From positions 2,765 to 66,764 of the forward strand of contig DSCS01000026.1 in NCBI GenBank assembly GCA_011048995.1: a stretch of 64,000 nucleotides of DNA, written 5' to 3'. The DNA is from Bacillota bacterium (lineage in GTDB: Bacteria > Macinerneyibacteriota > Macinerneyibacteria > Macinerneyibacteriales > DSCS01). Positions 1,457-27,475 of this stretch are shown one piece after another (the first letter of the stretch is position 1; every line of letters begins with the position of its first letter). A program made the position numbers and the translations under genes. Below the pieces are notes generated by a model. That model did no database searches. It had not been told where the DNA came from and was given only the letters and a program-made list of their open reading frames with translations.

Positions 1457-1526
1457 GAGAGCTCCTCATTTCAAGGATTAATTCTTGACAGCTTTTGAGG
1501 GCTGTGCTATATTTTGACCCGTTGAT

Positions 1527-1597
1527 TGGGGAGTCGTCTAATGGCAGGACAGCGGACTCTGACTCCGCCGGTGATGGTTCGAATCCTTCCTCCCCAG
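1527..1597 (+). tRNA. tRNA-Gln (anticodon CTG)
   Basis: Manual cloverleaf: acceptor TGGGGAG/CTCCCCA, D-stem GTCT/GGAC, anticodon stem GCGGA/TCCGC with loop CTCTGAC, T-loop GGTTCGAATCC, discriminator G. The 5' TGGGG and 3' CCCCAG ends resemble E. coli tRNA-Gln. No encoded CCA. Confidence 0.75.
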
Positions 1598-1605
1598 TTT
1601 ACTTT

Positions 1606-1678
1606 GGTCCCATCGTCTAGCGGCCTAGGACATCGCCCTCTCACGGCGAAGACAGGGGTTCGATTCCCCTTGGGACTG
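1606..1678 (+). tRNA. tRNA-Glu (anticodon CTC)
   Basis: Near-identical in layout to E. coli tRNA-Glu (GTCCC..TCGTCTAG.GGCC.AGGAC..CGCCCT.TCACGGCG...AGGGGTTCGA.TCCCC). Anticodon loop CTCTCAC gives CUC. No encoded CCA. Confidence 0.8.
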
Positions 1679-1717
1679 TTTCTCTTTTTTTTCTTTTTCC
1701 TCTTTTTTTGAAAAATA

Positions 1718-1745
1718 TTGACTTTCTCCTGAAGGGCCATACAAT
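1718..1745 (+). promoter_or_regulatory. Putative sigma70-type promoter for gcvT (TTGACT-16-TACAAT)
   Basis: Sequence match to -35/-10 consensus about 50 nt upstream of the gcvT start. Confidence 0.4.
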
Positions 1746-1796
1746 GGGGAAAAGAATATTTTTTACCGTTTGACCTATAGATAGAAGGAGGAGTTT

Positions 1797-2906
1797 ATGA
1801 AAAAAACAACCTTAAACGAGATTCACAAGAAATCAGGCGGAAAGATGGTGGACTTTCTGGGATGGGAATTGCCTGTGCAGTATGGCAAAGGGACGATTGC
1901 CGAGCATATGGCCGTGAGAAAAAACGTGGGATTATTCGACGTTTCTCATATGGGGCAATTCGAATTTAAGGGAAATGATGCCGTCGCTCTTATTCAAAAA
2001 CTGATTACAAACAACGCTGCCAAACTGGAGACCCGGCAAGTGCTTTACAGCCCCATGTGCTATGAAAACGGAACTATTGTGGACGATGTTCTCTGTTACC
2101 GCTTAGGAGAAGACCATTTTTATATGGTCGTCAATGCTTCGAACATCGAAAAAGACTGGGACTGGGTGAAAAAAAACGCTCAGGGGGCGGATCTGGATAT
2201 TATAAAGAATTTTTCTGATGAAGTCTCCCTTTTGGCGCTACAAGGCCCGTACGCCGAAAAGACGTTGCAAAAACTTCTCAAAGAGGATCTTTCTCAATTA
2301 GGCTTTTTCTACCTGCTGCCGCAGACTCAGGTCGATGATGTGGATGTGCTCATGATATCGCGAACAGGATACACCGGAGAAGACGGCTTTGAGATCATGA
2401 CAGTGAATACCCATGCGCCGGCTTTGTGGGAAACGATCATGAAGGCCGGAGAAGAGTTCGGGATCGAGCCCTGCGGTTTGGGGGCCCGGGATACCTTGCG
2501 CTTTGAAGCAAAACTTCCTCTTTACGGAAATGATATTGATGACACGACAACTCCCGTAGAAGCGGTTTTGAAATTTTTTATTGATACTGAAAAACCTTTT
2601 TTTAACGGTAAAGAGACGATCCTCGACCAGATCAATAACGGCACAGAGCGGCTGATCCGTGGTTTTGAGATGATAGACAAGGGGATTCCCCGCCATGGCA
2701 TGGAGATCTATTCGGCTGAAGGGGAAAGAATAGGGTATGTGACCAGTGGAACCTATGCTCCTTTCCTGGAGAAAAACCTGGGCCTGGGATATATTGATAA
2801 ACCGCATCATAAACCCGGGCAGGAGATCTTTATCGATGTCAGGGGAAAAAGGAAAAAAGCGGTGATCGTCAAAACACCTTTTTATAAGAAATCCTATAAA
2901 TCATAA
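1797..2906 (+). CDS. gcvT: Glycine cleavage system T protein (aminomethyltransferase)
   Basis: 369 aa. GcvT-typical residues (HMGQFEF, RDTLRFEAKLPLYGNDID, folate-binding fold signature). Confidence 0.88.
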   Translation: MKKTTLNEIHKKSGGKMVDFLGWELPVQYGKGTIAEHMAVRKNVGLFDVSHMGQFEFKGNDAVALIQKLITNNAAKLETRQVLYSPMCYENGTIVDDVLCYRLGEDHFYMVVNASNIEKDWDWVKKNAQGADLDIIKNFSDEVSLLALQGPYAEKTLQKLLKEDLSQLGFFYLLPQTQVDDVDVLMISRTGYTGEDGFEIMTVNTHAPALWETIMKAGEEFGIEPCGLGARDTLRFEAKLPLYGNDIDDTTTPVEAVLKFFIDTEKPFFNGKETILDQINNGTERLIRGFEMIDKGIPRHGMEIYSAEGERIGYVTSGTYAPFLEKNLGLGYIDKPHHKPGQEIFIDVRGKRKKAVIVKTPFYKKSYKS

Positions 2907-2996
2907 TTCTTTGGGGGAGTGGCGTCTCCCCCATTATTTTTTCGGCATTCTATAAAAATTTCTCTTGCAATGAAAATAAAGTTGTGCTATAAAATA

Positions 2997-3023
2997 TTAG
3001 CACTCACCTTAAGTGAGTGCTAA
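2997..3023 (+). promoter_or_regulatory. CIRCE operator (HrcA binding site) upstream of groES
   Basis: TTAGCACTC-N9-GAGTGCTAA perfect inverted repeat, identical to the CIRCE consensus. hrcA is encoded in this same window. Confidence 0.9.
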
Positions 3024-3061
3024 TAGGATAAGCAAGACCTGTTATGGTGTAACGAAAGGAG

Positions 3062-3343
3062 ATGGTTATGAAAGTCATGCCTTTGGAAGAACGTGTTCTG
3101 GTGAAGGTGGAATTGACCCAGGAAAAAACGAAAAGCGGAATTTATCTGCCCGACACCGCCAAAGAAAAAACGCAGCAGGGTGAAATAGTCGAGGTGGGGA
3201 CTTCCGAGGATTTTAATAAGATGGGCATTAAAAAGGGTGTTAAGGTCATTTTCGCCAAGTATGCCGGGACAGAGATTAAAATCGACAATGAGGATTATCT
3301 GATTTTGAACAAGACAGATGTCCTTGCCAAAGTCGAGCAGTAA
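3062..3343 (+). CDS. groES: Co-chaperonin GroES (start possibly ATG 3068)
   Basis: 93 aa. MKVMPLEERVLVKV...SGIYLPD Hsp10 pattern, immediately upstream of groEL. Confidence 0.92.
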   Translation: MVMKVMPLEERVLVKVELTQEKTKSGIYLPDTAKEKTQQGEIVEVGTSEDFNKMGIKKGVKVIFAKYAGTEIKIDNEDYLILNKTDVLAKVEQ

Positions 3344-3346
3344 TAA

Positions 3347-4996
<1,650 letters not shown>

Positions 4997-5098: not shown

Positions 5099-6553
5099 GT
5101 GATGAATATGAAAAATATTGCTCAATGGGCTGTGGAAGCTATGGCAGCTGAGGGCGTAGACTACGGAGATGCCCGTTTACGCCGGACAGACCGGGAAGTC
5201 ATTATGACTCAAAACGATACCCTCCGCTTTGTTGATAATTTTACAGAGCGGGGGATCGGAGTGCGTGTCCTTGTGAAGGGACGCTGGGGATTTGTTGCGA
5301 CGCCGTTTTTGTCCAAAGAATCTGTACAACAATGCGTCTTAAAAGCCGTAGGTATCGCTAAGGCAGCGGCTGTTGTCAATCAGGAGCCGATTAAGCTGAC
5401 TCAGGATAAGGCGGCACAGGGTGTTTTTAAGACTAAGATCGAAAAGGACCCTTTTGACCTTCCCCTGGGGGAGAAGGCTGCTCTGCTGATCGCTGCTTAT
5501 GAAAAGATGGCCGCTCAAAAAGCTATTAAACGGGTGATGGGCCGCATGTATTTTCGGCGCATGCATCAGTTTTTCCTCTCGACAGAAGGTGCTGACCTGG
5601 AAAACCTTGTTTACACTTCGGCCGCGACGTATAATGCTACAGCTGTGGGACAAGGGGATTTTCAGACCCGGGGATTACCCGAATACCCGAAAAATGCCGG
5701 ATTTGAATGGATCGAATCCCAAAATATCGTAGAGAAAGCCCCGGAAGTCGCTGAGGATGTCATGAAAAAACTGGGAGCCTCCCGGGCCCCGTCCGGGAAA
5801 ACCGATCTGATCCTTATGCCGTCCCATCTTTGCCTGACCATACATGAATCAGTGGGACATCCTACCGAGCTGGACCGTGTTTTGGGATGGGAAGCCAATT
5901 TTGCGGGGACATCTTTTGCAACGCCGGAAAAAAGAAATCATTTCCAATACGGTTCCCCGTTGGTCAATTTTGTGGCGGACAATACATTAGAGGGAGGGCT
6001 GGCGACTTGGGGGAATGATGATGACGGGATCTGCGGGAAGCGTTGGCAGATCATTCAAGACGGCCTCTTAGTCAATTACGGGACGACCCGGGACACAGCC
6101 CATTATATCGGAGATACAGAAAGCATGGGCTGTAACAGGGCCGATTCCTATGCCTCTCAGCCGATCAACCGTATTCCCAATTTAAGCCTGATGGCGGGAA
6201 AAGACCCCCTGTCTCTTGATGAGCTGATCGCTGACACGGAAAAGGGGATCCTTATTGACGGTATGGGGAGTTTTTCCATCGATCAAAGGCGGTATAATTT
6301 TCAATTCGGAGGAGACATGTTTTATGAGATCAAAGGCGGTAAAATCACTCGTCCGCTGAAGGATGTCATTTATCAGGCGATTACTCCGGAATTCTGGAAC
6401 TCCTGTGATGCTATTTGTGACGAACGTTTCTGGGAGCCTTACGGAGTACTCAATTGCGGAAAGGGAGAGCCGTCACAGACCCAGCAGATGACTCATGGTT
6501 CGGCTCCGGCCCGGTTCAGAAATATTGATGTGGGAGGTGCCTTTAATGGATAA
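5099..6553 (+). CDS. tldD: TldD family metalloprotease (peptidase U62)
   Basis: 484 aa. HExxxH-like HESVGHPTELDRV motif, TldD length, paired with pmbA downstream. Confidence 0.8.
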   Translation: MMNMKNIAQWAVEAMAAEGVDYGDARLRRTDREVIMTQNDTLRFVDNFTERGIGVRVLVKGRWGFVATPFLSKESVQQCVLKAVGIAKAAAVVNQEPIKLTQDKAAQGVFKTKIEKDPFDLPLGEKAALLIAAYEKMAAQKAIKRVMGRMYFRRMHQFFLSTEGADLENLVYTSAATYNATAVGQGDFQTRGLPEYPKNAGFEWIESQNIVEKAPEVAEDVMKKLGASRAPSGKTDLILMPSHLCLTIHESVGHPTELDRVLGWEANFAGTSFATPEKRNHFQYGSPLVNFVADNTLEGGLATWGNDDDGICGKRWQIIQDGLLVNYGTTRDTAHYIGDTESMGCNRADSYASQPINRIPNLSLMAGKDPLSLDELIADTEKGILIDGMGSFSIDQRRYNFQFGGDMFYEIKGGKITRPLKDVIYQAITPEFWNSCDAICDERFWEPYGVLNCGKGEPSQTQQMTHGSAPARFRNIDVGGAFNG

Positions 6554-7844
6554 GAAGAAACGTTTTCAGGATATTGCAGAATTCATCGGAAACACGCTGA
6601 ATGCCGATGACTATGTTATCAAATACGAAAATGAGAATGAGGCTTTAACGCGATTTGCAGACAATAAAGTAACACAGAATGTGGACACATTGAAAGAAAC
6701 GGTCTCTTTGACAGCCTGGATCGACGGGAAGAAAGCGACGTTGAGCAGCGCCGACTGCAGCCGTGAAGGATTGAAAGAGCTGACCGGGAAATGTGAAAAA
6801 GCCGCCCGGGCCTCTGTTCCCGACAAAGAGTATTTACCTTCATTAAGCGATGATGGCCAGGTTATCGAACAGATGGTGGATCCCGCGGTTTTGAAAGCCG
6901 GGGCTCCCGAACGGGCAGCCATTGCCGCACGCACCATCGCCAGGGCCTCTCAAAACAAAGTCACGGCTTTTGGGACGGTCTTTCATACGCTGAATGCCAC
7001 GGGCCTGGCGACGGCTAACGGGCTTTTGAAGTATTATGAGAATACGGCGGCAGGGTACTCCAATACGGTTGACAAAAACGGAGAAAAGGGGAGTTCTTTC
7101 TCGAACGGTTATGACCTGGCCTCGATGAATCCTGAAGAGGATTTCAGCCGGGCATTGAAAGATGCCGAGCTTCTTCAGAACAGGAAAGAGTTTGACCCCG
7201 GACGCTATCCTGTTCTTCTTTCTGCCCAGGCGGCTTCCAAATTGATGATGTGGCTGGGGTTCTTCGGAGCTGACCGGCAGGCTGTGGATGAGGGCTATTC
7301 GCCTTATTCCAATAAAATGGGAGAGACTTTGGTGGACACGCGGATCTCCATCGGGACGAATCCCGCTCATCCGTCATCGCCGTCTCTTCCCTTTGATTCT
7401 GCAGGATTGGCTGTAGAGGACAGAAAGATCATCGATAAAGGTGTCTTAACCGATATTCCCTGCTCACGATTCTGGGCTTCACAAAAGGGGTATGAGCCCT
7501 GGAGTGCTACGAATGTCGTCATAAGCGACGGGACAAAAACGGAAGAAGAGCTTCTGTCCTCTTTGGACCGGGGTTTTTACATCAAAGACCTCTGGTATAT
7601 CCGGATGGTCCGCATGGAAGACTTTACTTTGACGGGAATGACACGGAACGGGTTCTTTTATGTGGAAGACGGGAAAATCGTCACGGGGGCTACTCATTTC
7701 CGTTGGAATGATTCTCCTCTGAGAATGCTGAACAATATCCTCGGACTGGGGAAAGGCTCAGGGTTTGTAGACTCATGGTTTTCAGTTTTTACGCCGTCTC
7801 TCCTTATCCGTGATTTCTATTTAAGCAGTAAGACACTGTTTTAA
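6546..7844 (+). CDS. pmbA: PmbA/TldE family peptidase U62 partner. Start taken at ATG 6546 (RBS GGAGGT), overlapping the tldD stop in ATGGATAA
   Basis: About 433 aa. U62 family C-terminal region, translationally coupled to tldD. Confidence 0.72.
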   Translation: MDKKKRFQDIAEFIGNTLNADDYVIKYENENEALTRFADNKVTQNVDTLKETVSLTAWIDGKKATLSSADCSREGLKELTGKCEKAARASVPDKEYLPSLSDDGQVIEQMVDPAVLKAGAPERAAIAARTIARASQNKVTAFGTVFHTLNATGLATANGLLKYYENTAAGYSNTVDKNGEKGSSFSNGYDLASMNPEEDFSRALKDAELLQNRKEFDPGRYPVLLSAQAASKLMMWLGFFGADRQAVDEGYSPYSNKMGETLVDTRISIGTNPAHPSSPSLPFDSAGLAVEDRKIIDKGVLTDIPCSRFWASQKGYEPWSATNVVISDGTKTEEELLSSLDRGFYIKDLWYIRMVRMEDFTLTGMTRNGFFYVEDGKIVTGATHFRWNDSPLRMLNNILGLGKGSGFVDSWFSVFTPSLLIRDFYLSSKTLF

Positions 7845-7852
7845 AGAGGAAA

Positions 7853-7880
7853 GGCTGCAGTAACCGCTGCAGCCTTTTTC
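7853..7880 (+). terminator. Rho-independent terminator after pmbA
   Basis: GGCTGCAG-TAACCG-CTGCAGCC hairpin plus T5. Confidence 0.75.
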
Positions 7881-8013
7881 CCGCTTATAAGGCCTTTTAA
7901 CCGGAAGATCCCATGACCGGAAGGGTTTTTTCAATGAAATGTAAGGGTTTTCTCTTGTCAAACGCTCTCAGCATGTTATTTTTAGACTGCAATTGAGTGA
8001 AAGGAGTTGATTT

Positions 8014-8640
8014 ATGAAACGACAGCTTCCCGTCATTATTACATTTATCTTCGCTGTCATCGGGATTATTTTACAGCTCTCTCCTGTGATGCAGGACAAA
8101 TTTATCGATCCCGTTAACAGCTGGATTGCCTCGATCTCGTCTTTTGCCGTGATTATCGGCCTGGCCAGCCTGGTCAGGCATCACACCACAAAGATCAGGC
8201 GGAAGCATAAAGATCAGTTTTTCAGTTTTGTTACCTTTACGGCTTTAGTGGTGATGGCCACTGTCTCGATTGTCGGGTACTATCATCCGGGTTCGATTTG
8301 GAAAGTTTTCGCCGATAACCTTTACCGACACATCATGGTCCCGTTGAATGCGACAATGTTCGCTTTGCTGGCTTTTTATATTTCTTCAGCCGCTTACCGG
8401 GCTTTCCGCGCCAGGACTTGGCTGGCCGGGACATTGCTCGTATCCGGGTTTATCGTCATGCTGGGCCGTGTCGCTTTCGGGCCTTTGATGATCGCCGCGG
8501 AAATCACAAATTGGCTTATGCTGATCCCCAATACGGCTGCCATGAGAGGGATCATGATCGGTGTGGGATTGGGGATGGTGGCGACAGCCATTAAGATCAT
8601 GCTGGGTATCGAGCGCTCCTATCTGGGAGGTGGTGAATAA
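8014..8640 (+). CDS. Cassette A gene 1: polytopic membrane protein (about 6 TM), unknown function. Conserved KIRRKHKD loop and ERSYLGGGE C-terminus
   Basis: Hydrophobic segments. Paralog at 11687-12310 with a highly conserved C-terminal half (SAAYRAFRARTWLA, MGRVAFGP, IERSYLGGGE). Confidence 0.8.
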   Translation: MKRQLPVIITFIFAVIGIILQLSPVMQDKFIDPVNSWIASISSFAVIIGLASLVRHHTTKIRRKHKDQFFSFVTFTALVVMATVSIVGYYHPGSIWKVFADNLYRHIMVPLNATMFALLAFYISSAAYRAFRARTWLAGTLLVSGFIVMLGRVAFGPLMIAAEITNWLMLIPNTAAMRGIMIGVGLGMVATAIKIMLGIERSYLGGGE

Positions 8641-9638
8641 TGAGAAAGAATAAGAATGCCTGGTATGAAAAGCTTCTGGCTATTCCCAAACCTGTGATCT
8701 ATGTCATCATGTTTTTTGTCGTGGCACTGCCGGTTCTCTTTAAGATGCAGATCAGCACCTATGTCACAACAGAAGTCCAGCTGATTTATGATCATATGGA
8801 AGAACTTTACCGGTATAACCTTGAAAATCCTGATGAAAAAAAAGCCGTTTTTATTGCTTTTGATTATGACCCGTCTACTATGGCGGAATTGGATCCTATG
8901 GCTTTCGCCACCCTGCGGCACGCTTTTTTGAGGGATATTCCCGTTCTCGGCTGGTCGGGACTGCCCACAGGGGTGGATTTAGGAGAGCAAAACATGCATC
9001 TGATCGCTAAAGAGTACGGAGCCGTTTACGGCGAAGATTATGTTTTTCTGGGGTACGGGTATCCCTTTGTCCAGGCGATTATCGCTTTAGCTACAGATGT
9101 GAAGACTTTTTTTGCCAGTGACAAAGCGGGAAATAATACCCGTGATCTTCCTTTGCTGGGAGAGATCTATAATTTTAACCGCATCGGGTTGGTCTTTACC
9201 ATGTCCGGAACCTCCTACCCCGAGTCCTGGGTGACGTATGCCAACGGGCTTTACGGGAAAAAAGTCATAACAGGCTCCACAGCGGTTTCTGCAGCCAAAT
9301 ATTACCCTTTTTTGCAAACGGAGCAGATGTCCGGGCTTATGGGGGGATTAAAAGGGGCTGCCGAATATGAGCAGCTTGTGGAAAACCTGGAAAAGGAGAT
9401 TCACGGGAAAGACGTCAAAACCTATTTGGAGAATCTCTACCGGGACAAAGACCTCAGCCGGTATGATTCTTCCAATTATAAGACAGGGTTTACTCCTGAT
9501 GAGATCCAACTGAGTGTGGCCCGGAGAAGTACGGCCCGGCAGGGCATGGCTCCTCAGGCGACAGCTCATTTTTATGTAATCCTTTTAATAATTATCGGTA
9601 ATATCGCCTATTTCGCCCGTATGCGGAATAGTAAATGA
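8640..9638 (+). CDS. Cassette A gene 2: bitopic protein with N- and C-terminal TM helices flanking a roughly 280-aa soluble domain, unknown function
   Basis: Start ATG overlaps the gene 1 stop (TAATG). Paralog at 12310-13305 (conserved LRHAFLR.IPV, AKEYGAVYGED.VF.GY.YP, YPFLQT.QM.G.MGGL.GAAEYE.LV). Confidence 0.8.
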   Translation: MRKNKNAWYEKLLAIPKPVIYVIMFFVVALPVLFKMQISTYVTTEVQLIYDHMEELYRYNLENPDEKKAVFIAFDYDPSTMAELDPMAFATLRHAFLRDIPVLGWSGLPTGVDLGEQNMHLIAKEYGAVYGEDYVFLGYGYPFVQAIIALATDVKTFFASDKAGNNTRDLPLLGEIYNFNRIGLVFTMSGTSYPESWVTYANGLYGKKVITGSTAVSAAKYYPFLQTEQMSGLMGGLKGAAEYEQLVENLEKEIHGKDVKTYLENLYRDKDLSRYDSSNYKTGFTPDEIQLSVARRSTARQGMAPQATAHFYVILLIIIGNIAYFARMRNSK

Positions 9639-9651
9639 CAGGAGGGGAATT

Positions 9652-10368
9652 ATGGGTACATTGATTTGGATGACCATTGCATTATTTCTGACCTTAGCTG
9701 TCTTTTCCTTCCTTTTCAGAGATAATGTCCTTTATAAATTTGCAGAGCATCTTTTTGTAGGTGTCTCTGTGGGCTATACAGTGTATGTCAGCTATACGAA
9801 TCTCTTTTTGCCGAGAGTCTGGAACCCCTTGCGCCGGGCGATCGGCGACGGGAATATACTCCTGGCGCTGTGGCTGGCCCTGGGTGTTCTTGTGGGAATC
9901 CTTTATTTCTCCCGCTTTACCCAAAACTGGAACTGGGTGAGCCGCTATCCCATCAGCATCACTGTCGGCTATTTAACGGGCTACTCGATCATCCCCAGCC
10001 TGAAGGCTCGTATTTTGAGTCAGTTTTACGGGACAGTGGTGGACCCGGCCGGCGATTCGCTTCTGAACGCCGAAAAAATCGGGGTCTTTTTTAAGGAACC
10101 CACTTTGCATAATTTTTTCTTTGAAGCCATGGCCGGACCGCTCCTGGTGTTTGGGGTCTTTGTGGTCATTGTCTACTTTTTCTTTTCTTTTAAGAATACG
10201 AACCCCGTGGTCCGTTTTTCACGGAATCCGGCGCTGGTTTATCTGATGGTGGCCTTCGGCGCTTCGTTCGGCTATACCTTCATGGGGCGTATCAGCCTTT
10301 TTATCGGACGGATGAATTTTATTTTCCATGAATGGTGGCCGATTTTTAAGAATATGATCAGCGGATAG
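9652..10368 (+). CDS. Cassette A gene 3: polytopic membrane protein (about 6 TM), unknown function
   Basis: RBS GGAGGG upstream. Paralog at 13315-14022 (conserved KFAEHLFVG, RYPISITVG, GRISLFIGRMNFIF.EWWP). Confidence 0.8.
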   Translation: MGTLIWMTIALFLTLAVFSFLFRDNVLYKFAEHLFVGVSVGYTVYVSYTNLFLPRVWNPLRRAIGDGNILLALWLALGVLVGILYFSRFTQNWNWVSRYPISITVGYLTGYSIIPSLKARILSQFYGTVVDPAGDSLLNAEKIGVFFKEPTLHNFFFEAMAGPLLVFGVFVVIVYFFFSFKNTNPVVRFSRNPALVYLMVAFGASFGYTFMGRISLFIGRMNFIFHEWWPIFKNMISG

Positions 10369-10380
10369 AAGGGAGTGACA

Positions 10381-11520
10381 ATGAAAACGAAAAAAATAAT
10401 GATTATTCTTTGGGCCCTTCTTTTCTGTCTGCCTGTCGCTGCAGAAGAGAGGGCTCCTCTAGCTAATTTTGAATTAAAAGATACGCCGAACAATGCCGGA
10501 GAGCAGGTCGAGTTCCTTTTTGTACCGGCAGCCTCTCCTGAAGAAGTCCCGGAGTTTCTGCTTCATATCGCTATCGGCGATGAGCCTGTCAAAGAGCGGC
10601 GGTTAGTGAACGCCGGCAAAGAGATCTTTCTCCCTCTGATCACCGGCGAAGCAGGGGTTCCGGTGGAAGTCCGTGTTGAAGCTGTCATGGATGACGGTTC
10701 TTTGAAAAACTTAGGGACATCTTCCCTTGTCAGCCGCGGAGAATGGCTGAATATGAACTCCATGAAGGCCTTTATCCTGGGGCTTCTCTTTATTGCCCTG
10801 ATTATCTTTTATGTGGGCCGGGCGAAAAAAGGCAAAGATCTTTTCATCAGGAAGATCCCGGGACTGGAGGCTATTGATGACGCTTTGGGACGGGCCACAG
10901 AAATGGGACGCCCGGTCTTCTATGTGCCCGGAACATCAAGTATGGCTGATGTGGCCACGCTGGCTTCTTTGAATATTCTGCGACCGGTAGCCCGTCAGGT
11001 GGCCAAATATGAGACGCCCTTTTCTGTCCCTGTCAAGGACCCTATTGTGGTCTCTGTAGCTCAGGATGTGGTCAAAGAAGCCTATATGGCCGCCGGCCGC
11101 CCTGATCTCTACGATGACGGAATCGCCTATCTGGCTTCTATGGGACAGTTCGACTATTCGGGAGCTGTGAGCGGTTCTATGATGCGTGAAAAGCCGGCCA
11201 CGGTTTTTCTTTTGGGGATGTTTTATGCCGAATCACTGATTTTGGCTGAAACGGCTAACAGCGTCGGGGCGATTCAGATCGCCGGGACCGATGCCTCATC
11301 CCAGCTGCCCTTTTTCATCGCAGCCTGTGATTATACGCTGATCGGAGAAGAGCTTTATGCTGCTTCTGCCTACATGAGTCGTGAACCGCTCCTTTTGGGA
11401 ACATTAAAAGCACAGGATATTCTCAAAGGGCTTCTTCTTTTGCTCTTTGTCACGGCGATTATTTTTCAGCTTTTCGGTATTGATTTCGTCATGGACACTT
11501 TTTTAAAACCCGAATGGTGA
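10381..11520 (+). CDS. Cassette A gene 4: signal peptide, then a variable exported domain of about 100 aa, then TM, then a conserved domain of about 230 aa, then a C-terminal TM. Unknown function
   Basis: N-terminal MKTKKIMIILWALLFCLPVAAEE signal-like sequence. The C-terminal domain is over 80% identical to its paralog at 14025-15170, but the N-terminal exported domain is highly diverged. Confidence 0.8.
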   Translation: MKTKKIMIILWALLFCLPVAAEERAPLANFELKDTPNNAGEQVEFLFVPAASPEEVPEFLLHIAIGDEPVKERRLVNAGKEIFLPLITGEAGVPVEVRVEAVMDDGSLKNLGTSSLVSRGEWLNMNSMKAFILGLLFIALIIFYVGRAKKGKDLFIRKIPGLEAIDDALGRATEMGRPVFYVPGTSSMADVATLASLNILRPVARQVAKYETPFSVPVKDPIVVSVAQDVVKEAYMAAGRPDLYDDGIAYLASMGQFDYSGAVSGSMMREKPATVFLLGMFYAESLILAETANSVGAIQIAGTDASSQLPFFIAACDYTLIGEELYAASAYMSREPLLLGTLKAQDILKGLLLLLFVTAIIFQLFGIDFVMDTFLKPEW

Positions 11521-11526
11521 TTTCGC

Positions 11527-11565
11527 AGGGGTGCTTCCGGCGCCCCTTTATTTCTTTTCGTTTTT
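11527..11565 (+). terminator. Rho-independent terminator between cassette A and cassette B
   Basis: AGGGGTGC-TTCCG-GCGCCCCT hairpin followed by a T-rich tract. Confidence 0.7.
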
Positions 11566-11686
11566 CACAACAAAATAAATCCGCAAGCGTATAAGAAAAG
11601 GACGTTTTTTAGTATTGCGGACAAAAAGAAAGTAGAGTATCTTTTTTTTAGACCTTATGATCATTTAAACGGAAGGAGTTAACCCT

Positions 11687-12310
11687 ATGAAGAGAACCCT
11701 GCCTCTTGCTTTGGCCTTCATCTTCGGTCTTATCGGGATCGCCGTTCAGATCGTGCCTGCTTTGAAGGGATTCCTGAATACGATGCTGGACTGGATGGCC
11801 ATTATCGGGTCTTTTGCCCTGGCTTTGGGTGTTTCCAGCCTTACCCGCCATCATATGACAAAGATCCGGCGGAAGCACAAAGACATGTTTTTCAGTTACG
11901 TGACCTTTGTCACGATGCTTTTTATGATGATTATCGGCCTTATCGGCTACTTTCAGCCGGAAAGCCTCTATCAGAGGCTTTTCGGAAATATGTACAATTA
12001 TGTACGTGTCCCCCTGGACGCCAGTATGTTTGCCTTATTGGCCTTTTTTATTACTTCAGCGGCGTATCGTGCCTTCCGGGCCCGCACTTGGCTGGCCACG
12101 GTTTTGCTGGTGGCCGGAGTCGTGGTGATGATGGGCCGGGTAGCCTTCGGCCCCTTTATGATCTTTAATGATATTACGGCCTGGCTGATGAAAGTTCCTA
12201 CGACAGCCGCCATGCGGGGGTTGACGATCGGAATCGGTTTGGGAATCGTGGCCACATCTATCAAGATCGTTCTCGGTATTGAGCGCTCTTATCTGGGAGG
12301 GGGAGAATAA
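11687..12310 (+). CDS. Cassette B gene 1 (paralog of 8014-8640), polytopic membrane protein
   Basis: 207 aa. Same C-terminal ERSYLGGGE and KIRRKHKD loop as its paralog. Confidence 0.8.
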   Translation: MKRTLPLALAFIFGLIGIAVQIVPALKGFLNTMLDWMAIIGSFALALGVSSLTRHHMTKIRRKHKDMFFSYVTFVTMLFMMIIGLIGYFQPESLYQRLFGNMYNYVRVPLDASMFALLAFFITSAAYRAFRARTWLATVLLVAGVVVMMGRVAFGPFMIFNDITAWLMKVPTTAAMRGLTIGIGLGIVATSIKIVLGIERSYLGGGE

Positions 12311-13305
12311 TGAAAACACCCTGGTATGAGAAGATCGCCTCCGTTGATAAAAAGATCCTTTATGTGATCATGTTTGTCGTGGTGATGATCCCGCTTCTGG
12401 CCAAATGGACCTATAACCCTGATGTTATGGACGAAGTACAGGACATTTACGATGAGGTCGAGGAGATCTATGCCTATAATCTTGCCAATCCTGATGCTCC
12501 CATGGGGATACTCTTCTCTTTTGATTACGGACCCTCGACAAGTGCTGAGCTTGACCCCATGATGATGAGTGTCCTGCGCCACGCTTTTTTAAGGAAGATC
12601 CCTGTAGTGACTTGGGTCGCCTTTGTGGACAGCATCGATCTGGGGAAAAGAATCACCAACTTTATTGCGAAAGAATACGGCGCTGTCTACGGCGAAGATT
12701 TTGTCTTCATGGGCTATCCTTATCCTATGACGGCGGCCGTCGTGGCTTTTGGAAGTGATGTGCGTAAATTTCTGGTAAAAGATTTTTACGGCAATGTCAG
12801 CACGGATCTGCCGCTATTGAATAAGATCTATAATTACAAAAGTATCGGATTGATTGTGACCGTTTCCGGCACGTCCATGCCCCGGTTCTGGGTGACCTAT
12901 GCCAACACCCTTTATGGCAAAAAGATCGCCACAGGGACGACGGCAGTTTCTGCCGCGGACTTTTACCCCTTTTTGCAGACCAAACAGATGATCGGCATGA
13001 TGGGGGGGCTTCGCGGGGCTGCTGAGTATGAGAAGCTGGTCTATGAATTGGAAACCGAACTTATCGGAACTGACACAGAGATGTATATGCAGAGTGTCTA
13101 TAAACAAAATACGGTACAAAAGTGGGATACCAAAGTCTTTACGCCCGGCTATACGGAAGAAGAATTGCGCGAGCATATCTCTACCCGTATGACAGCCCGC
13201 ACGGGGATGGCCTCTCAGGCTGCAGCTCACTTTTTTGTCATATTTTTGATTATTTTGGCCAACCTCGGCTACTTTTTTAAACGCCGGGCCGAAAACAAGA
13301 GGTAG
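12310..13305 (+). CDS. Cassette B gene 2 (paralog of 8640-9638)
   Basis: 331 aa. Same TAATG start/stop overlap as copy A. Confidence 0.8.
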   Translation: MKTPWYEKIASVDKKILYVIMFVVVMIPLLAKWTYNPDVMDEVQDIYDEVEEIYAYNLANPDAPMGILFSFDYGPSTSAELDPMMMSVLRHAFLRKIPVVTWVAFVDSIDLGKRITNFIAKEYGAVYGEDFVFMGYPYPMTAAVVAFGSDVRKFLVKDFYGNVSTDLPLLNKIYNYKSIGLIVTVSGTSMPRFWVTYANTLYGKKIATGTTAVSAADFYPFLQTKQMIGMMGGLRGAAEYEKLVYELETELIGTDTEMYMQSVYKQNTVQKWDTKVFTPGYTEEELREHISTRMTARTGMASQAAAHFFVIFLIILANLGYFFKRRAENKR

Positions 13306-13314
13306 GAGGTCCTT

Positions 13315-14022
13315 ATGTTATTCTGGTATACTGTCGCGGTATTATTAAGTCTTGCCATCTTCTCCTTCCTCTGGAAGGATAATCCCCTCTATAAATTTGC
13401 TGAGCATCTTTTTGTCGGGACCATGGTGGGATATACGATCGTCATGGTCTTTTCACAGATTATCATGAGAAAGATCGTAGACCCTATTACGCTTGCCGTG
13501 CATAATCATCAATATCTTAACCTGATCTCTCTGATTATTGCCACATTGATCGGGCTTCTTTATCTCTCCCGTTTTTCACAGAAGGCCCAATGGGTTAGCC
13601 GTTATCCCATCTCCATCACCGTAGGGTTTTGGAGCGGATATGCCATTGTCACATCATTTAAAACCAATATCCTCACCCAGGTGCGCGGGACAGTAGTGGA
13701 TGATATGGGAGCTCCTCTGTTGAATGGAGAGCTTTTGGGTGATTTCATTAAAAGCCCCTCCTGGTCATCTTTGGATCTGGCTGTTTCAGGCCCGCTTCTG
13801 GTCTTTGGTGTCATCGTCGTCTTGATCTACTTCTTTTTTTCCATAAAGAATGAGAATCCCATGGTCAGATTTGCCAATAAGCCGGCGCTTCTCTATCTGA
13901 TGCTGGGTTTCGGGGCTTCTTTCGGCTATACTTTTATGGGCCGTATCAGCCTCTTTATCGGGCGGATGAATTTTATTTTTAATGAGTGGTGGCCGCTCTT
14001 AAAACAGACCATAGGAGGATAA
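13315..14022 (+). CDS. Cassette B gene 3 (paralog of 9652-10368), polytopic membrane protein
   Basis: 235 aa, GGAGG RBS. Confidence 0.8.
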   Translation: MLFWYTVAVLLSLAIFSFLWKDNPLYKFAEHLFVGTMVGYTIVMVFSQIIMRKIVDPITLAVHNHQYLNLISLIIATLIGLLYLSRFSQKAQWVSRYPISITVGFWSGYAIVTSFKTNILTQVRGTVVDDMGAPLLNGELLGDFIKSPSWSSLDLAVSGPLLVFGVIVVLIYFFFSIKNENPMVRFANKPALLYLMLGFGASFGYTFMGRISLFIGRMNFIFNEWWPLLKQTIGG

Positions 14023-14024
14023 GG

Positions 14025-15170
14025 ATGAAAAAAATACTTTTTTTAGCTCTTGTCGTACTCGTGAGCCTGTCATTCGCGGCTGCGGTGAAAGCCGAAGAGG
14101 AGCGTCCCCTTTACGGATGTGAATTGAATCTTTATGATACACCCAATGACGACGGAATCTCTGTTGAGCTGGAGTTTATGCCTTTAAGCTCTCCCGATGA
14201 GGTCCCCCAATACGGCATTGACCTTTATGTGGACGGGGTTTTTATGAATACTTTGACCGTTGTCAATGCCCAGGCCCTTTTTATATACACGGTACCCACC
14301 GATAAAAGGGGAGCGGAAGTTCGGGCTGAAGTCTTTGCGTATGATGCAGAAGGGACGCGTCAGGGGCCTGTTCAAGTCGAAAAAGCTATCTCCACGGCCC
14401 AATGGTACTATTCTGACCGCATTGGCGCCTTTATCTGGTCGATGCTCTTTATCGGACTGATTATGATTTTGATCGGTAAAGCCAAAAAGGGACAGGATAT
14501 CTTTATCCGCCGTATTGCCGGATTGGAAGCCATTGACGATGCCGTAGGCCGTGCCACGGAGATGGGGCGCCCTGTTTTCTATATTCCCGGGACATCCATC
14601 ATCGATGATATTGCCACATTGGCTTCGCTGAATATTCTGCGACCTGTGGCTCAGCAGGTCGCTACCTATGAGACGCCTTTTTCCGTGCCTATAAAAGACC
14701 CTGTGGTGCTGACGGTGGCCCAGGATATCGTCAAAGAAGCCTATATGGCGGCCGGCCGGGCTGACCTTCATGATGAAGGAATGGTCTATTTGGCGTCTGT
14801 AGGCCAGTTTGACTATGCCGCCGCCGTAAACGGAGCCATGGTGCGCGAAAAACCGGCAACAGTTTTTTTGCTGGGGATGTTTTGGGCCGAATCTTTGATG
14901 CTGGCTGAAACAGCCAACACGGTAGGAGCCATTCAGATCGCCGGAACCGATGCGACTTCTCAGCTGCCTTTTTTTATTGCTGCCTGTGACTACACCCTCA
15001 TCGGAGAAGAACTTTATGCCGCATCAGCCTATATGAGCCGTGAACCTTTACTTTTAGGGACGCTGAAAGCCCAGGATATGATCAAGGGAGCTGTTATTTT
15101 CGCTATGCTTCTTTCCCTGGTCTTTATGCTTTTCGGCATCGATTCTGTGATGAATTTCTTTTTTCAGTAA
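14025..15170 (+). CDS. Cassette B gene 4 (paralog of 10381-11520). Start set at ATG 14025 (MKKILFLALVVLVSLSFAAAVKA signal peptide), not the 13986 ORF-track start that overlaps gene 3
   Basis: 381 aa with signal peptide. Conserved C-terminal domain, divergent exported N-terminal domain. Confidence 0.78.
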   Translation: MKKILFLALVVLVSLSFAAAVKAEEERPLYGCELNLYDTPNDDGISVELEFMPLSSPDEVPQYGIDLYVDGVFMNTLTVVNAQALFIYTVPTDKRGAEVRAEVFAYDAEGTRQGPVQVEKAISTAQWYYSDRIGAFIWSMLFIGLIMILIGKAKKGQDIFIRRIAGLEAIDDAVGRATEMGRPVFYIPGTSIIDDIATLASLNILRPVAQQVATYETPFSVPIKDPVVLTVAQDIVKEAYMAAGRADLHDEGMVYLASVGQFDYAAAVNGAMVREKPATVFLLGMFWAESLMLAETANTVGAIQIAGTDATSQLPFFIAACDYTLIGEELYAASAYMSREPLLLGTLKAQDMIKGAVIFAMLLSLVFMLFGIDSVMNFFFQ

Positions 15171-15177
15171 TCTTCAT

Positions 15178-15207
15178 ATGGGGGAGGAGAGCGCTCTCTT
15201 CCCCCAT
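15178..15207. promoter_or_regulatory. Near-perfect 30-bp GC-rich palindrome (ATGGGGGAGGAGAGCGC|GCTCTCTTCCCCCAT) between cassette B and trkH. It is either a terminator hairpin lacking a T-tract or a dimeric regulator operator
   Basis: Read directly. One mismatch between the arms. Confidence 0.5.
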
Positions 15208-15213
15208 AATTCC

Positions 15214-15241
15214 TTGACAATCCCCCGATAAAATATATACT
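15214..15241 (+). promoter_or_regulatory. Putative trkH promoter TTGACA-16-TATACT, ending about 10 nt before the ATG, which implies a very short or absent leader
   Basis: Consensus match. Confidence 0.35.
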
Positions 15242-21393: not shown

Positions 21394-21404
21394 AAGGAGT
21401 GTCT

Positions 21405-23624
21405 ATGGCCATTTATATTTGTCCTCAATGCGGCGCAGACATTGAGTTAGAACACGGGTTGACCTGTGAGTACTGCGGATATGAAGTTCCCGGGAAAAAA
21501 TGCAGCCAATGTGGCCGGGATATCCCTGATGAAAGCATTATGTGCCCCCTTTGCGGAGCGCCTCAAAAAGGAGATTCTACTCCGTCAGCTCCGGAAGGTC
21601 TTGAAACTCCTGCATACGGAGAAGTCATATCCAATGTACCCCAAAGTACAGAGCTTCATGGCGGGGCATTTGAAGAGAAAGAGACGCATTTCGGCCATCA
21701 TGAAGAGATAGAGGAAATCATTGATGATCATGAAGAGATCGACGAGGCTGAATTTCTTGAGGAAACTGTCTCCGGAGAACCTGTTGATGAGGAAGAAATT
21801 CCTGTACAGGCTGAAGAGGAGACGTTGCCCTCAAAAGCTCTTGGAAATGAGGAGCCTGTTCCTTTGTCCATAGGGCATGATGAGGAAGTCCAGTATATGA
21901 CCTATAGCGAGACACAGAAAGAAGAGCGTCAGGCTGAAATTTTTGAAGAACCGGAAACTCCGGAAGAGAAGATCTGCGAAAGCTGCGGATTTGCTAATCC
22001 CACTATTGCTAAATTCTGCTTAAGTTGTGGTTCTCCGCTGGATGAGAAACCGCCTTTGCAAGAGGAACCGGAATCAGTCATCTGCCCCGATTGCGGGTTT
22101 GAAAACTCAAAAGATGCCCGTTTCTGTATGGTCTGCGGGGCAAAATTAGACAGAGAGGCCGTATCGGAAATGGCTTCGCGTCCTGATGTGAAGGAATCTC
22201 CTGCTGAGGTTCCCGTACAGAATATGTCTGCAGATCAGCATGCGCAGAAGCTCTTTAACGTGAAGATCACTTATGACAAAGAGAATAAATTTCAGCAGAA
22301 ATTTGTTTTTAATAAAATAAGGGAGAGTAACCATTCCATTGCTGAAAATGAATTGAATATGTTGATGTCCAACAATACATTTATGATCCAGGTGGAAGAG
22401 GACCGATTCCAGTCCTTACAGGCTGAGTTAGAGGATTTAGATTGTACGGTGGAAATGATCGGAGAAGAGATTTCGGGAGTGGAAACGAGCCCTTCTGAAG
22501 AGGATGAGCCTGTTGCCGCAGTCAAAGGCCCGGTGTCCTACTCTCTTCTTGTCAAGGGAATGAAGGGGCATGAACAATCCTGGAGGGAAAAATTCTTTAA
22601 GATGATTATGCTTATGATCCCCTCTATGACAGAAGAAATGGCCTGGCAGATTGCAGCGTCTGAAGAAAAACGCATCCCCATGGAGAATGAAGAGACAGCC
22701 AGGGATTTACAGAAGATCCTTTCGCGGATGGGGTGTATCACCCAGATCATTGAGCACAAAGGGCATCATCCTGCAGAAGAAGATGTGCAGATGAAAGAAA
22801 CGGCCGCCTCTGCTGAAGAAACCGTTGTTCAAAAAGAAAAGACGCCTCAGCCGGTATCTCCTGAAGAGAAAAAAACGTCTGCAAGGCCGGTAGATGATAA
22901 CATCGGGAAAGATGACCCGAGATACCTTATCCTGTCCGGGGTTGACAAAAGAAACTGGGTCGTCCGTGAAAAGCTTGCTGAATCCATTGTAGATATTTAT
23001 CCTAACATGACTCCGGACATCGCAGCAGGAATCGTTTCACAACCGGTAGTCAGGTTACGTGTCCAAAACCAGGATGATGCCGAGCGTCTGGGAAAACAGT
23101 TTGAGGAAATGGGTTGGAATATTCGAATCGAAGATGTTGCAACATTCAGTGATAAATCAAAAAAGACCGGTGCCACAGTAAGCCGGGTCGATGTGCAGCG
23201 GCGTAAAGCAGCCCGTTTGTCTTACTTGAAAAGAGAAAAGGGAAAAAGACGGAATTTTGTTACGACCATCATTATTACGATTATTGCTGTTGCGGCCCTA
23301 TTGATCGTCTACGACACTTATTTTAAGCCACGTTATTACGTGACTTTGCAAGCTGAAGCCAATCACCCGGAAGTCGCCTTTACGGCCAGCTCGGGAAGTT
23401 TTATCTACTTGAGAAAAGAACCGAGCCTCAGCGCCATGCGAGAAGATTACAGAGTGTCCCTTGACCAGACACTGCGTCTTTTCAGAAAGGACGCTCTTGT
23501 CGGTGAGGACGGCATGCAATATTATGAGGTCTATGTCCCCGGATTCCGCGCTCACCGGGCCTATCTTTTGGCGGAACTGGCTTTCAGGAGCGATGAAAAC
23601 GGGGCGCCTGTCGCCCTGGAATAA
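21405..23624 (+). CDS. Hypothetical protein with at least 5 CxxC...CxxC zinc-ribbon pairs, long acidic linkers, a TM helix near residue 610 and a roughly 100-aa C-terminal domain
   Basis: Repeated CPQCG/CSQCG/CPLCG/CESCG/CLSCG/CPDCG/CMVCG motifs. RBS AAGGAG before ATG 21405. Confidence 0.6.
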   Translation: MAIYICPQCGADIELEHGLTCEYCGYEVPGKKCSQCGRDIPDESIMCPLCGAPQKGDSTPSAPEGLETPAYGEVISNVPQSTELHGGAFEEKETHFGHHEEIEEIIDDHEEIDEAEFLEETVSGEPVDEEEIPVQAEEETLPSKALGNEEPVPLSIGHDEEVQYMTYSETQKEERQAEIFEEPETPEEKICESCGFANPTIAKFCLSCGSPLDEKPPLQEEPESVICPDCGFENSKDARFCMVCGAKLDREAVSEMASRPDVKESPAEVPVQNMSADQHAQKLFNVKITYDKENKFQQKFVFNKIRESNHSIAENELNMLMSNNTFMIQVEEDRFQSLQAELEDLDCTVEMIGEEISGVETSPSEEDEPVAAVKGPVSYSLLVKGMKGHEQSWREKFFKMIMLMIPSMTEEMAWQIAASEEKRIPMENEETARDLQKILSRMGCITQIIEHKGHHPAEEDVQMKETAASAEETVVQKEKTPQPVSPEEKKTSARPVDDNIGKDDPRYLILSGVDKRNWVVREKLAESIVDIYPNMTPDIAAGIVSQPVVRLRVQNQDDAERLGKQFEEMGWNIRIEDVATFSDKSKKTGATVSRVDVQRRKAARLSYLKREKGKRRNFVTTIIITIIAVAALLIVYDTYFKPRYYVTLQAEANHPEVAFTASSGSFIYLRKEPSLSAMREDYRVSLDQTLRLFRKDALVGEDGMQYYEVYVPGFRAHRAYLLAELAFRSDENGAPVALE

Positions 23625-27464: not shown

Positions 27465-27475
27465 AGAAGGGATTT

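Follow-up and report, generated by a model that had tools for sequence, protein, structure and literature searches.

The window analysed here, a 64,000-nucleotide stretch of DNA, carries two collinear four-gene operons at 8014-15170, both on the plus strand and both in the order A-B-C-D, which encode diverged versions of one set of membrane proteins. We propose, with a probability of roughly 40%, that each cassette specifies a single four-subunit complex of the cytoplasmic membrane, a translocase or transducer for the cell envelope, of a kind that is as yet uncharacterised. Its assignment to this class rests on architecture alone, because no subunit has detectable homology to a transporter, stator, pump or enzyme. 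Nothing among the characterised transporters, motors and enzymes is like the cassette, which is why its function remains open.

Two diverged copies of a four-gene cassette

The ORF listing of 8014-15170 confirmed all eight reading frames. In the first copy, A1 (8014..8640, 208 aa) is a polytopic subunit with six hydrophobic cores and its N-terminus inside, and B1 (8640..9638, 332 aa) is a bitopic subunit in which a Rossmann-like alpha/beta domain, probably periplasmic, lies between N- and C-terminal transmembrane (TM) helices. C1 (9652..10368, 238 aa) is polytopic, with about six TM helices and with invariant residues E32, T209 and R213 in predicted ones, while in D1 (10381..11520) a signal peptide and an exported FN3 domain are followed by a TM helix, the cytoplasmic alpha/beta domain DUF6754 and another TM helix at the C-terminus. 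The second copy consists of A2 (11687..12310, 207 aa), B2 (12310..13305, 331 aa), C2 (13315..14022, 235 aa) and D2 (14025..15170), whose identities with their paralogues at the protein level are 60, 52, 57 and 57%, respectively. The two collinear cassettes described in an earlier note were thus borne out. The TAATG overlap that it reported between the stop of gene 1 and the start of gene 2 is present at the A/B junction of both copies, and every sequence block that it quoted could be located. Its topologies for A, B and D were upheld; six TM helices in C is a reading of family hydropathy. For D1, the ATG at 10381 is preferred to an alternative GTG at 10375, on the grounds of RBS spacing and of a 379-aa database protein (P0121). 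D2 starts with the ATG at 14025, preceded by AGGAGGA, the GTG at 13986 giving an over-extended product.

Operon 1 is bounded upstream by a terminator after pmbA (7853..7879, plus strand), a hairpin of the form GGCTGCAG-TAACCG-CTGCAGCC followed by TTTTT. An intrinsic terminator with a 9-bp stem, 6 G-C pairs and a T-rich tail (11527..11547, plus strand) separates the two operons, and the 166-nt spacer between them contains its own RBS, AAGGAGTT. Downstream of D2, direct reading of the sequence revealed a G+C-rich hairpin without a T-run (15180..15205, plus strand), then a near-consensus trkH promoter (15214-15241, 11 of 12 positions matching). Overlapping start and stop codons point to translational coupling within the window. 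That each cassette is transcribed as its own operon is held tentatively, as part of the best explanation as a whole. An RBS is the only element common to the two leaders. An Rfam scan disclosed no riboswitch or leader RNA that would point to a ligand, its sole match being a sub-threshold CsrC on the hairpin after pmbA.

The flanking genes are TldD/PmbA upstream and TrkH/TrkA downstream, as the earlier note had stated. This neighbourhood was found again only in close relatives (a cluster of 3 loci) and is uninformative, since it is not conserved beyond them; a functional tie to trkHA or to tldD/pmbA was rejected on this ground. The window also contains a gcvT gene, and GcvP genes lie within 8 kb at five other loci (L008, L032, L035, L056 and L084). 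A link with the glycine-cleavage system is recorded only as a side observation, the enrichment being weak and the positions inconsistent.

At the DNA level the two copies are 63% identical, and about half of the residues that are identical between them are encoded by different codons. The duplication is therefore old and has been under purifying selection; it is no artefact of assembly. Across the family, duplications are partly lineage-specific and partly older. Divergence between the copies is distributed in a strongly asymmetric way: block-wise comparison of D1 and D2 established 70-100% identity in the cytoplasmic domain and only about 10-25% per block in the exported FN3 region, and in A, B and C the variable blocks fall outside the conserved cores. 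The outward-facing parts diverge, whereas the cytoplasmic domain of D is extremely conserved.

Subunit folds and family membership

D matched Pfam DUF6754 (PF20539) over its full length in both copies, with E=1e-110 and 369 bits for D1 and E=3e-108 and 361 bits for D2, against a gathering score of 27 bits; 254-256 of the 257 profile positions were covered. Its exported domain qualified as FN3, the criterion being a seven-strand beta-sandwich that matches FN3 structures or profiles. The AF2 model of D had a pLDDT of 90. Across phyla, 79 positions of D are conserved at 90% or more, and C318 is the sole invariant Cys (A, B and C have none at positions conserved to this degree). The FN3 + DUF6754 architecture is frequent among D homologues, the exported region ranging from a single FN3 to multi-FN3 regions several hundred residues long. 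Long D proteins offered no functional clue, as they contain only extra FN3 repeats, and a 1023-aa ORF at one locus (L029) was discarded as an over-extension artefact from high GC. DUF6754 has no assigned function, and we found no literature on DUF6754 or PF20539.

No match to A, B or C was found in Pfam, NCBIfam or PADLOC, and profile searches found no PDB relative of A or C; family profiles compared with all PDB sequences retrieved FN3 only. That none of the eight proteins can be assigned to a known family is hence almost right: it stands for A, B and C, but not for D, for which DUF6754 and FN3 were the only matches. The finding that would have refuted the note, membership of all four proteins in well-characterised families, did not emerge from these searches. 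The A family has at least 1811 members, all unnamed, with a family-wide positive-inside pattern, and an exhaustive search for C gave 1649 clusters at 50% identity. In C, TM2 and TM4 are weakly hydrophobic across the family, and a loop at about 130-155 tolerates EF-hand and ComEA/PsbU-like inserts; these are too heterogeneous (EF-hand, HhH/PsbU-like, helical) to serve as a functional clue. Comparison of 85-sequence families with hhalign gave no support for A and C as paralogues (probability ≤3.5%) and detected no internal 3+3 TM repeats in either. B and D were rejected as diverged paralogues at the same level (≤3.5%), also when their soluble domains were compared alone. The idea of a B/D and A/C pseudo-symmetry had come from motifs similar by eye, G[ST]xA...PF...G..AAxY.

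B was predicted with high confidence (AF2 pLDDT 95) to have a single-lobed, Rossmann-like fold clamped by TM helices at its N and C termini. Its sidedness is inferred: the domain is most likely periplasmic, judging only from the family-wide charge bias, which amounts to 3.1 K/R in the C-terminal tail and is ambiguous at the N-terminus. If B faced the cytoplasm instead, its domain and that of D could together make up a two-Rossmann enzyme.

An extracytoplasmic alpha/beta module next to two unequal membrane subunits, together with paralogue expansion, recalls the TRAP and TTT transporters, and the cassette may be read as a solute transporter with a tethered binding domain. A and C would then transport, B would bind solute in the periplasm, D would act as a KTN-like nucleotide gate, and the paralogues would serve different substrates. 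We consider this unlikely. The cassette has no homology to TRAP or TTT systems, B is single-lobed and held by two TM clamps, and D, with its FN3 and cytoplasmic domains, has no counterpart there. Searches of Pfam, NCBIfam and PDB profiles, which are limited to the sequence level, did not match A or C to any known transporter superfamily (ABC, MFS, TRAP, TTT, PTS-Man and others). In a KTN/RCK test, D gave no TrkA_N match and lacked the GxGxxG loop after beta-1, where it has PGTSS. Identity of D with KTN/RCK and with transhydrogenase dIII or sirtuin-type Rossmann domains was below 13%, a likeness of generic fold only.

The extreme conservation of D, no less compatible with catalysis than with coupling or regulation, counts against the favoured model. 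A membrane-anchored enzyme or a polymer synthase-exporter is a further reading. D, alone or with B or with the accessory protein n1 (see below), would act on a nucleotide-sugar or phospho-sugar, A and C would export the product, and the periplasmic FN3 and alpha/beta domains would guide it. BcsA-BcsB is built comparably, in that an alpha/beta domain in the cytoplasm and a conduit of TM helices are combined with TM-anchored periplasmic beta-sandwich and flavodoxin-like domains. Unlike BcsA-BcsB, however, the cassette consists of four separate subunits and shows no GT-2 signature, PilZ domain or homology. No glycosyltransferase or other enzyme family was matched, a single Rossmann domain makes up just half of a GT-B fold, B and D apparently lie on opposite sides of the membrane, and no sugar-nucleotide or lipid-carrier genes recur nearby. 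An enzymatic role of this type thus appears quite improbable.

Distribution and accessory module

The cassette was found at no fewer than 597 loci in species-representative genomes, all of them MAGs, from WOR-3, Zixibacteria, Poribacteria, anammox Planctomycetes, Eisenbacteria, Cloacimonadota and others; no cultured carrier was found among the named members. The order is nearly always D-A-B-C, with tandem copies numbering 1-3 or more. The four genes were collinear, tightly spaced and present at roughly 1:1:1:1 in about 80 D-centred loci representing more than 10 phyla, and the same collinearity was observed in independently retrieved n1-centred loci. The persistence of this order across phyla strongly reinforces the idea, already put forward in the note, of a specific, tandem-duplicated multi-subunit membrane complex of unknown function, although the assembly of A-D is itself inferred. 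Anti-phage defence or a mobile element was rejected as an explanation: no PADLOC defence model matched A-D or the accessory proteins n0, n1 and n5, the cassette was absent from the phage and plasmid collections searched, and its neighbours are core chromosomal housekeeping genes.

In about 12 of 84 D-centred loci, belonging to several phyla, D is directly preceded by a module composed of n5 (a small hydrophobic protein), n0 (a GlmL-family ASKHA ATPase) and n1 (a conserved 375-aa protein). Conversely, the cassette adjoins n1 in 24 of 62 n1 loci, scattered over the entire n1 tree. The module is missing at most cassette loci and from the window, so that the absence of an ATPase asserted for this DNA holds within the window, whereas elsewhere a GlmL-like one precedes a subset of the cassettes. 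n0 matched Pfam MutL (PF13941) over its full length (E=2e-129) and is extended at its C-terminus by about 110 extra aa. Its scores with the NCBIfam models GlmL (245 bits, equivalog cut-off 475) and glmL_fam (172, cut-off 204) were below the cut-offs, which suggests a family relative rather than an orthologue of the protein that serves the mutase. n1 contains a barrel-sandwich-hybrid domain; a biotinyl or lipoyl carrier function, by analogy with decarboxylase Na+ pumps, was rejected for lack of a conserved Lys at the hairpin tip.

With n1 included, the parts list becomes similar to that of a redox or ion pump such as PntAB or Nqr/Rnf: two 6-TM subunits of ~200 aa are joined by a bitopic one whose domain lies in the periplasm, by a TM-anchored Rossmann subunit facing the cytoplasm and by a soluble barrel-sandwich-hybrid protein. 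Even a distant analogy is very hard to sustain. No Pnt, Nqr or Rnf family of Pfam was matched at E≤1, the PNTB profile and the Rnf-Nqr and FMN_bind models included; A and C contain no conserved Cys pairs, there is no flavinylation or Fe-S motif, and the fold of B differs from that of the FMN_bind domain.

In one lineage, the n0-n1 module heads a complete tolQRAB-pal-cpoB operon, with the cassette alongside three times. This association is confined to two sub-clades (n1 ≥64% identical), is seldom seen around D (3 of 84 D-centred loci) and is absent from the window. We found no literature joining Tol-Pal with GlmL or PF13941 with the membrane, and none on Mcinerneyibacterium. In the favoured model, the module and its place before tol-pal serve as the link to an energy source and to the envelope. 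The Tol-Pal connection also counts in favour of a mechanical transducer driven by ion-motive force, like TolQRA, ExbBD-TonB or GldLM, in which ion flow through an A/C core would move D, and the FN3 stalk and B domain would deliver work to the peptidoglycan or outer membrane. Ionisable or polar residues are invariant in predicted TM helices (C-E32, C-R213, B-H310, B-N321, D-D348 and D-K351), the exported FN3 region varies in length, and the named carriers all come from lineages generally regarded as diderm. The cassette shares with these systems polytopic and bitopic inner-membrane subunits and a domain reaching into the periplasm. It shows no sequence homology to them, though, and A-D gave no MotA_ExbB, ExbD or OmpA-like match, while the same tool recognised genuine TolQ and TolR in related loci at 1e-30 and 5e-23. 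In most D proteins there is just one FN3, too short for spanning the periplasm, no peptidoglycan-binding or outer-membrane-binding domain was found in the cassette, and the Tol link is lineage-restricted. Known stators have small subunits in a 5:2 arrangement without a large conserved cytoplasmic Rossmann domain; the cassette has such a domain, and a second one probably outside. A transducer of this design is accordingly doubtful.

A working model

In the four-subunit translocase or transducer that we favour, A and C would form the polytopic core of a complex of about 16 TM helices, of which the window encodes two diverged versions. A and C are placed by sequence-based prediction only, and in fold they might prove to be like a known transporter or like something unforeseen. 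D would be the transmembrane connector, running from the exported FN3 through a TM helix and the Rossmann-like DUF6754 domain in the cytoplasm to a second TM helix, and B would place another Rossmann-like domain, most likely in the periplasm, between its two helices. Positive-inside statistics over the families support this topology. By inference, the cytoplasmic domain of D may bind a ligand, either a nucleotide or a phosphorylated compound, or may dock the GlmL-like ASKHA ATPase in some genomes; together with the network of invariant ionisable TM residues it might drive or gate the passage of a substrate, or the relay of a conformational signal, from one side of the membrane to the other. 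Which periplasmic substrate or partner each paralogous complex serves would depend on the rapidly diverging outward surface (FN3 of D, B domain and A/C loops). Such ion or ligand coupling, like the role in the envelope, is inferred; the gene set with its conserved collinear order, the domain folds and the uneven constraint are what was observed.

A bolder version, which we regard as possible but not probable, takes n5-n0-n1-D-A-B-C as the full form of an unrecognised envelope machine in diderm FCB, PVC and related candidate phyla. Ion flow, an ATPase of actin/Hsp70 fold (GlmL-like) or both would be coupled via DUF6754 to periplasmic work by the FN3 stalk and the outward Rossmann-like domain, alongside Tol-Pal, with paralogous cassettes specialised by envelope target.

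Three of the four proteins are outside family databases, and none has a solved or characterised relative. DUF6754 itself covers only one of the subunits. The occurrence of the cassette almost only in uncultivated lineages suggests that it may represent basic envelope or membrane physiology missing from model organisms. Its function, once known, could extend the repertoire of transporters, stators and pumps by a new type of membrane complex, and could give a GlmL-like ASKHA ATPase its first role beyond the reactivation of B12 mutases. Experiments can start from the list of subunits, their predicted topology, the candidate residues for coupling, the accessory module and the constant-inside/variable-outside pattern. 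With about 80 near-invariant positions, one domain is constrained to a degree more typical of central cell machinery than of accessory genes. Several cassettes occur together in some small genomes, and in one WOR-3 genome of 2.3 Mb they occupy two separate loci.

Organization of the two cassettes

The earlier note had described two collinear four-gene cassettes at window 8014-15170, and eight co-directional ORFs were indeed present there. The first copy consists of A1 (8014-8640, 208 aa), B1 (8640-9638, 332 aa), C1 (9652-10368, 238 aa), and D1 (10381-11520), and the second of A2 (11687-12310, 207 aa), B2 (12310-13305, 331 aa), C2 (13315-14022, 235 aa), and D2 (14025-15170). A and C are polytopic membrane proteins, B is a bitopic protein with a Rossmann-like domain, and D contains FN3 and DUF6754 domains. 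The identity between paralogues was 60, 52, 57, and 57% for A, B, C, and D, respectively, B being the least conserved subunit. The start of D1 was placed at ATG 10381 from the spacing of the ribosome-binding site (RBS) and from its agreement with a database protein (P0121, HDS02764.1, 379 aa); D2 starts at ATG 14025, and GTG 13986 is an over-extended start. The two cassettes share 63% DNA identity and use different codons for about half of their identical residues, which argues that the duplication is old and has been maintained by purifying selection.

The TAATG overlap between the stop of A and the start of B was found in both copies, as claimed, and the conserved sequence blocks quoted in the same note were all correct. 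The B-C and C-D gaps are 2-13 nt in both copies, with a Shine-Dalgarno sequence before each gene. Because a hairpin with a T-run lies 3' of pmbA (7853-7879), a strong terminator with a 9-bp stem lies 3' of D1 (11527-11547), and the 166-nt spacer between the cassettes has its own RBS, we infer that they are separate A-B-C-D operons. No riboswitch or other ligand clue was found for the cassettes. The sole Rfam match in the region, CsrC (7842-7881; 18.8 bits, gathering score 61), was rejected, as it corresponds to the terminator hairpin after pmbA.

The flanks were as previously reported, with TldD/PmbA upstream and TrkH/TrkA downstream, and in the window the cassettes lie among housekeeping genes (GroEL, DnaK, TopA, H+-PPase, AtpA, and DnaX). 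As listed, the pmbA-like ORF shares 59 nt (6495-6553) with the end of the tldD-like ORF, and it probably starts in fact at a more downstream position.

Distribution and gene order

Database searches retrieved at least 1811 relatives of A, 401 of B, and 8000 of D, all named 'hypothetical' or 'DUF6754', while an exhaustive HMMER search with C1 gave 1649 clusters at 50% identity (590 at E<=1e-10). When a single genome was scanned for each species, the D loci numbered at least 597; those retrieved, 80 in all, came without exception from MAGs, assigned to Poribacteria, WOR-3, Zixibacteria, Eisenbacteria, Stahlbacteria, Edwardsbacteria, Cloacimonadota, Latescibacterota, Aegiribacteria/Sabulitectum, CSSED10-310, Ignavibacteriales, Nitrospirota, Desulfuromonadaceae, and anammox Planctomycetes (Scalindua, Brocadiaceae, and Anammoxibacter). 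No cultured carrier was identified, and the system was not found in plasmid or phage collections. The nearest relatives of the window genes belong to Candidatus Mcinerneyibacterium and other MAGs, unlike the 'Firmicutes/Bacillota bacterium' label of the source record (HDS02764.1, locus tags ENN72_...), which may be unreliable.

The genes were adjacent, co-directional, and in the order D-A-B-C in essentially every locus with room for them, with one to three or more tandem cassettes per locus. Transcription units with the order A-B-C-D were limited to the clade of the window (the window itself, L005, L022, and, judging from locus tags, the Mcinerneyibacterium cassette), D-A-B-C being the order everywhere else (e.g. 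L004 and L007). Such a cyclic permutation would arise if a tandem array had been trimmed at another boundary, although this is an inference. The B and D trees contained both lineage-specific duplications (the pair of the window and three WOR-3 copies in L066) and older ones, grouped by position in Zixibacteria and Ignavibacteriales.

The proposal that these genes encode a multi-subunit membrane complex is thus well supported: as collinearity is invariant, gene content is roughly 1:1:1:1, and translation is coupled, we put at about 0.9 the probability that all four proteins belong to a single membrane complex.

Folds, topology, and constraint

No motif assignable to a known family had been noted in any of the proteins. 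This is borne out for A, B, and C, which matched nothing in Pfam or NCBIfam, and not for D, which is a member of DUF6754 (E=1e-110 and 3e-108 for the two copies), its only match in these libraries. PADLOC gave no match for the cassette proteins, and no mention of any component was found in the literature. Profile-profile comparison indicated neither a relationship among the four families nor internal repeats in A or C.

Confident AlphaFold2 models were built for B and D with family alignments. In the model of B (pLDDT 95, pTM 0.91), a six-stranded alpha/beta domain lies between an N-terminal TM helix and a long C-terminal one. In that of D (pLDDT 90), a signal peptide and a seven-strand beta-sandwich (30-119) precede two TM helices (127-151 and 338-366), between which lies a six-stranded alpha/beta domain (164-335). 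Neither model had a specific relative among solved structures, nor did any of the four family profiles when compared with every PDB sequence, apart from weak FN3 matches to the exported domain of D. A pump similar to Pnt or Nqr is very improbable, since cofactor motifs and homology are both absent. Three of the four subunits are in no family library, and the fourth is a DUF. The architecture of the complex is not shared in every feature by any known multi-subunit membrane system, with the caveat that the folds of A and C, which were not modelled, may yet connect it to a known transporter superfamily.

Family-wide charge (K/R) statistics placed the N-terminus of A inside, with three K/R-rich cytoplasmic loops, and the DUF6754 domain of D in the cytoplasm (4.5 K/R directly after TM1). 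The B domain is predicted to be periplasmic, probably, from its C-terminal tail (3.1 K/R), but its N-terminus was ambiguous. Conservation of D was extraordinary, with 79 positions at least 90% conserved among 87 sequences from many phyla, including R173, T175, and E176 (GRATEMG), the PGTSS loop after beta-1, and the block IQIAGTDAxxQLPFFIAACDYTLIGEELYAASAY. Such an enzyme-grade domain could be read as the core of a membrane-anchored enzyme or of a polymer synthase-exporter, a narrower rival reading of the complex that seems to us unlikely. Predicted TM helices of three subunits also hold invariant ionisable or polar residues (E32, T209, and R213 in C; H310 and N321 in B; D348 and K351 in D).

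Divergence between the two copies of the window was concentrated outside the cytoplasm. The FN3 region of D was only 10-25% identical per block, vs 70-100% for the cytoplasmic domain, and the variable blocks of A (21-40 and 81-100) and C (41-80 and 141-160) are predicted outward loops. Across phyla, the exported part of D begins with a conserved DxPNDxG motif and ranges from one FN3 to several hundred residues with further FN3-type repeats (L020, L047, and L026). In some C homologues (P0385, P0397, P0434, P0439, P0443, and P0478) the loop at about residues 130-155 (C1 numbering) carries inserts of 100-400 aa, among them Ala-rich helical segments, an EF-hand, ComEA/PsbU-like HhH modules, and a CheB-like fragment. 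As a reading of the whole complex, a TRAP-like solute transporter carrying a tethered binding domain is a possibility, though a doubtful one.

Accessory module, Tol-Pal, and proposed function

About 12 of the 84 D-centred loci have three genes, n5, n0, and n1, just upstream of D, with gaps mostly <100 nt (e.g. L001 2646-6001, L048 4170-7514, L070 4272-7833, and L032 4551-7920), in Scalindua, Anammoxibacter, Desulfuromonadaceae, Zixibacteria, Eisenbacteria, Ignavibacteriales, and others; none is encoded in the 64-kb window. The n5 protein (~123 aa) has a conserved hydrophobic hairpin. The n0 protein (~594 aa) is a GlmL/MutL-family ASKHA ATPase (full-length Pfam MutL/GlmL match, E=2e-129) that stays under the GlmL equivalog cut-offs of NCBIfam and is extended by ~110 aa at its C-terminus. 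The n1 protein (~375 aa) is in no Pfam family, has 99 invariant positions among 9 sequences, and gave a weak barrel-sandwich-hybrid signal, without a conserved biotinyl or lipoyl lysine. In the reverse test, 80 n1 loci were retrieved from metagenomes; among the 62 with enough downstream sequence, 24 adjoined the cassette (20 with D-A-B-C directly downstream, 4 with it divergently upstream). Since the n1 sequences linked to the cassette are found throughout the n1 tree (48-89% identity, GC 34-70%), the association is a broad and old one without being obligate.

In ten loci (including L091, L094, L114, L115, and L116; e.g. L114 11326-15375), n0-(m0)-n1 heads a complete, Pfam-confirmed tolQ-tolR-tolA-tolB-pal-cpoB operon, in the place that ybgC occupies in E. 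coli. The recurrent ASKHA partner of the cassette thus also accompanies Tol-Pal. The cassette itself is alongside in three of the ten, L114-L116, as D-A-B-C divergently upstream; L124 has the same arrangement, its contig ending just after n1. The ten loci fall into two sub-clades within a single lineage (n1 at least 64% identical), and Tol genes near D were rare elsewhere (3 of 84 D-centred loci) and absent from the window. The link is suggestive only, and an ion-driven mechanical transducer of the Tol/Ton/Gld type remains conceivable without being likely. The function of the complex is an inference. Five features together (a cytoplasmic domain that is constant and enzyme-grade, ionisable residues within the membrane, an outward face that diversifies and bears an FN3 stalk, the expansion of paralogues, and the ASKHA partner) are best fitted by a translocase or transducer serving the cell envelope, a class that we propose tentatively, at somewhat less than even odds.

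Two genes upstream of an n0-n1-D-A-B-C cluster, L065 encodes a 1023-aa TPR and DnaJ-domain protein (1230-4301), a noteworthy neighbour given the Hsp70/actin-type fold of n0. In several unrelated genomes, glycine-cleavage genes lay no more than ~8 kb from the cassette, with weak enrichment and inconsistent positions (gcvT at window 1797-2906; GcvP subunits at L032 3063-4502, L035 1016-3861, L056 54-1160, L008 12614-13945, and L084 679-2034). Elsewhere in the window, the product of a 1685-aa ORF with a TTG start (27461-32518) carries TPR repeats together with a GGDEF diguanylate-cyclase domain at its C-terminus, the larger part of the protein being without a family match. A 741-aa protein (21399-23624) has double zinc-ribbon domains near residues 190-250, the rest being unassigned, and is followed by a ComEC-like competence protein (23661-24815).
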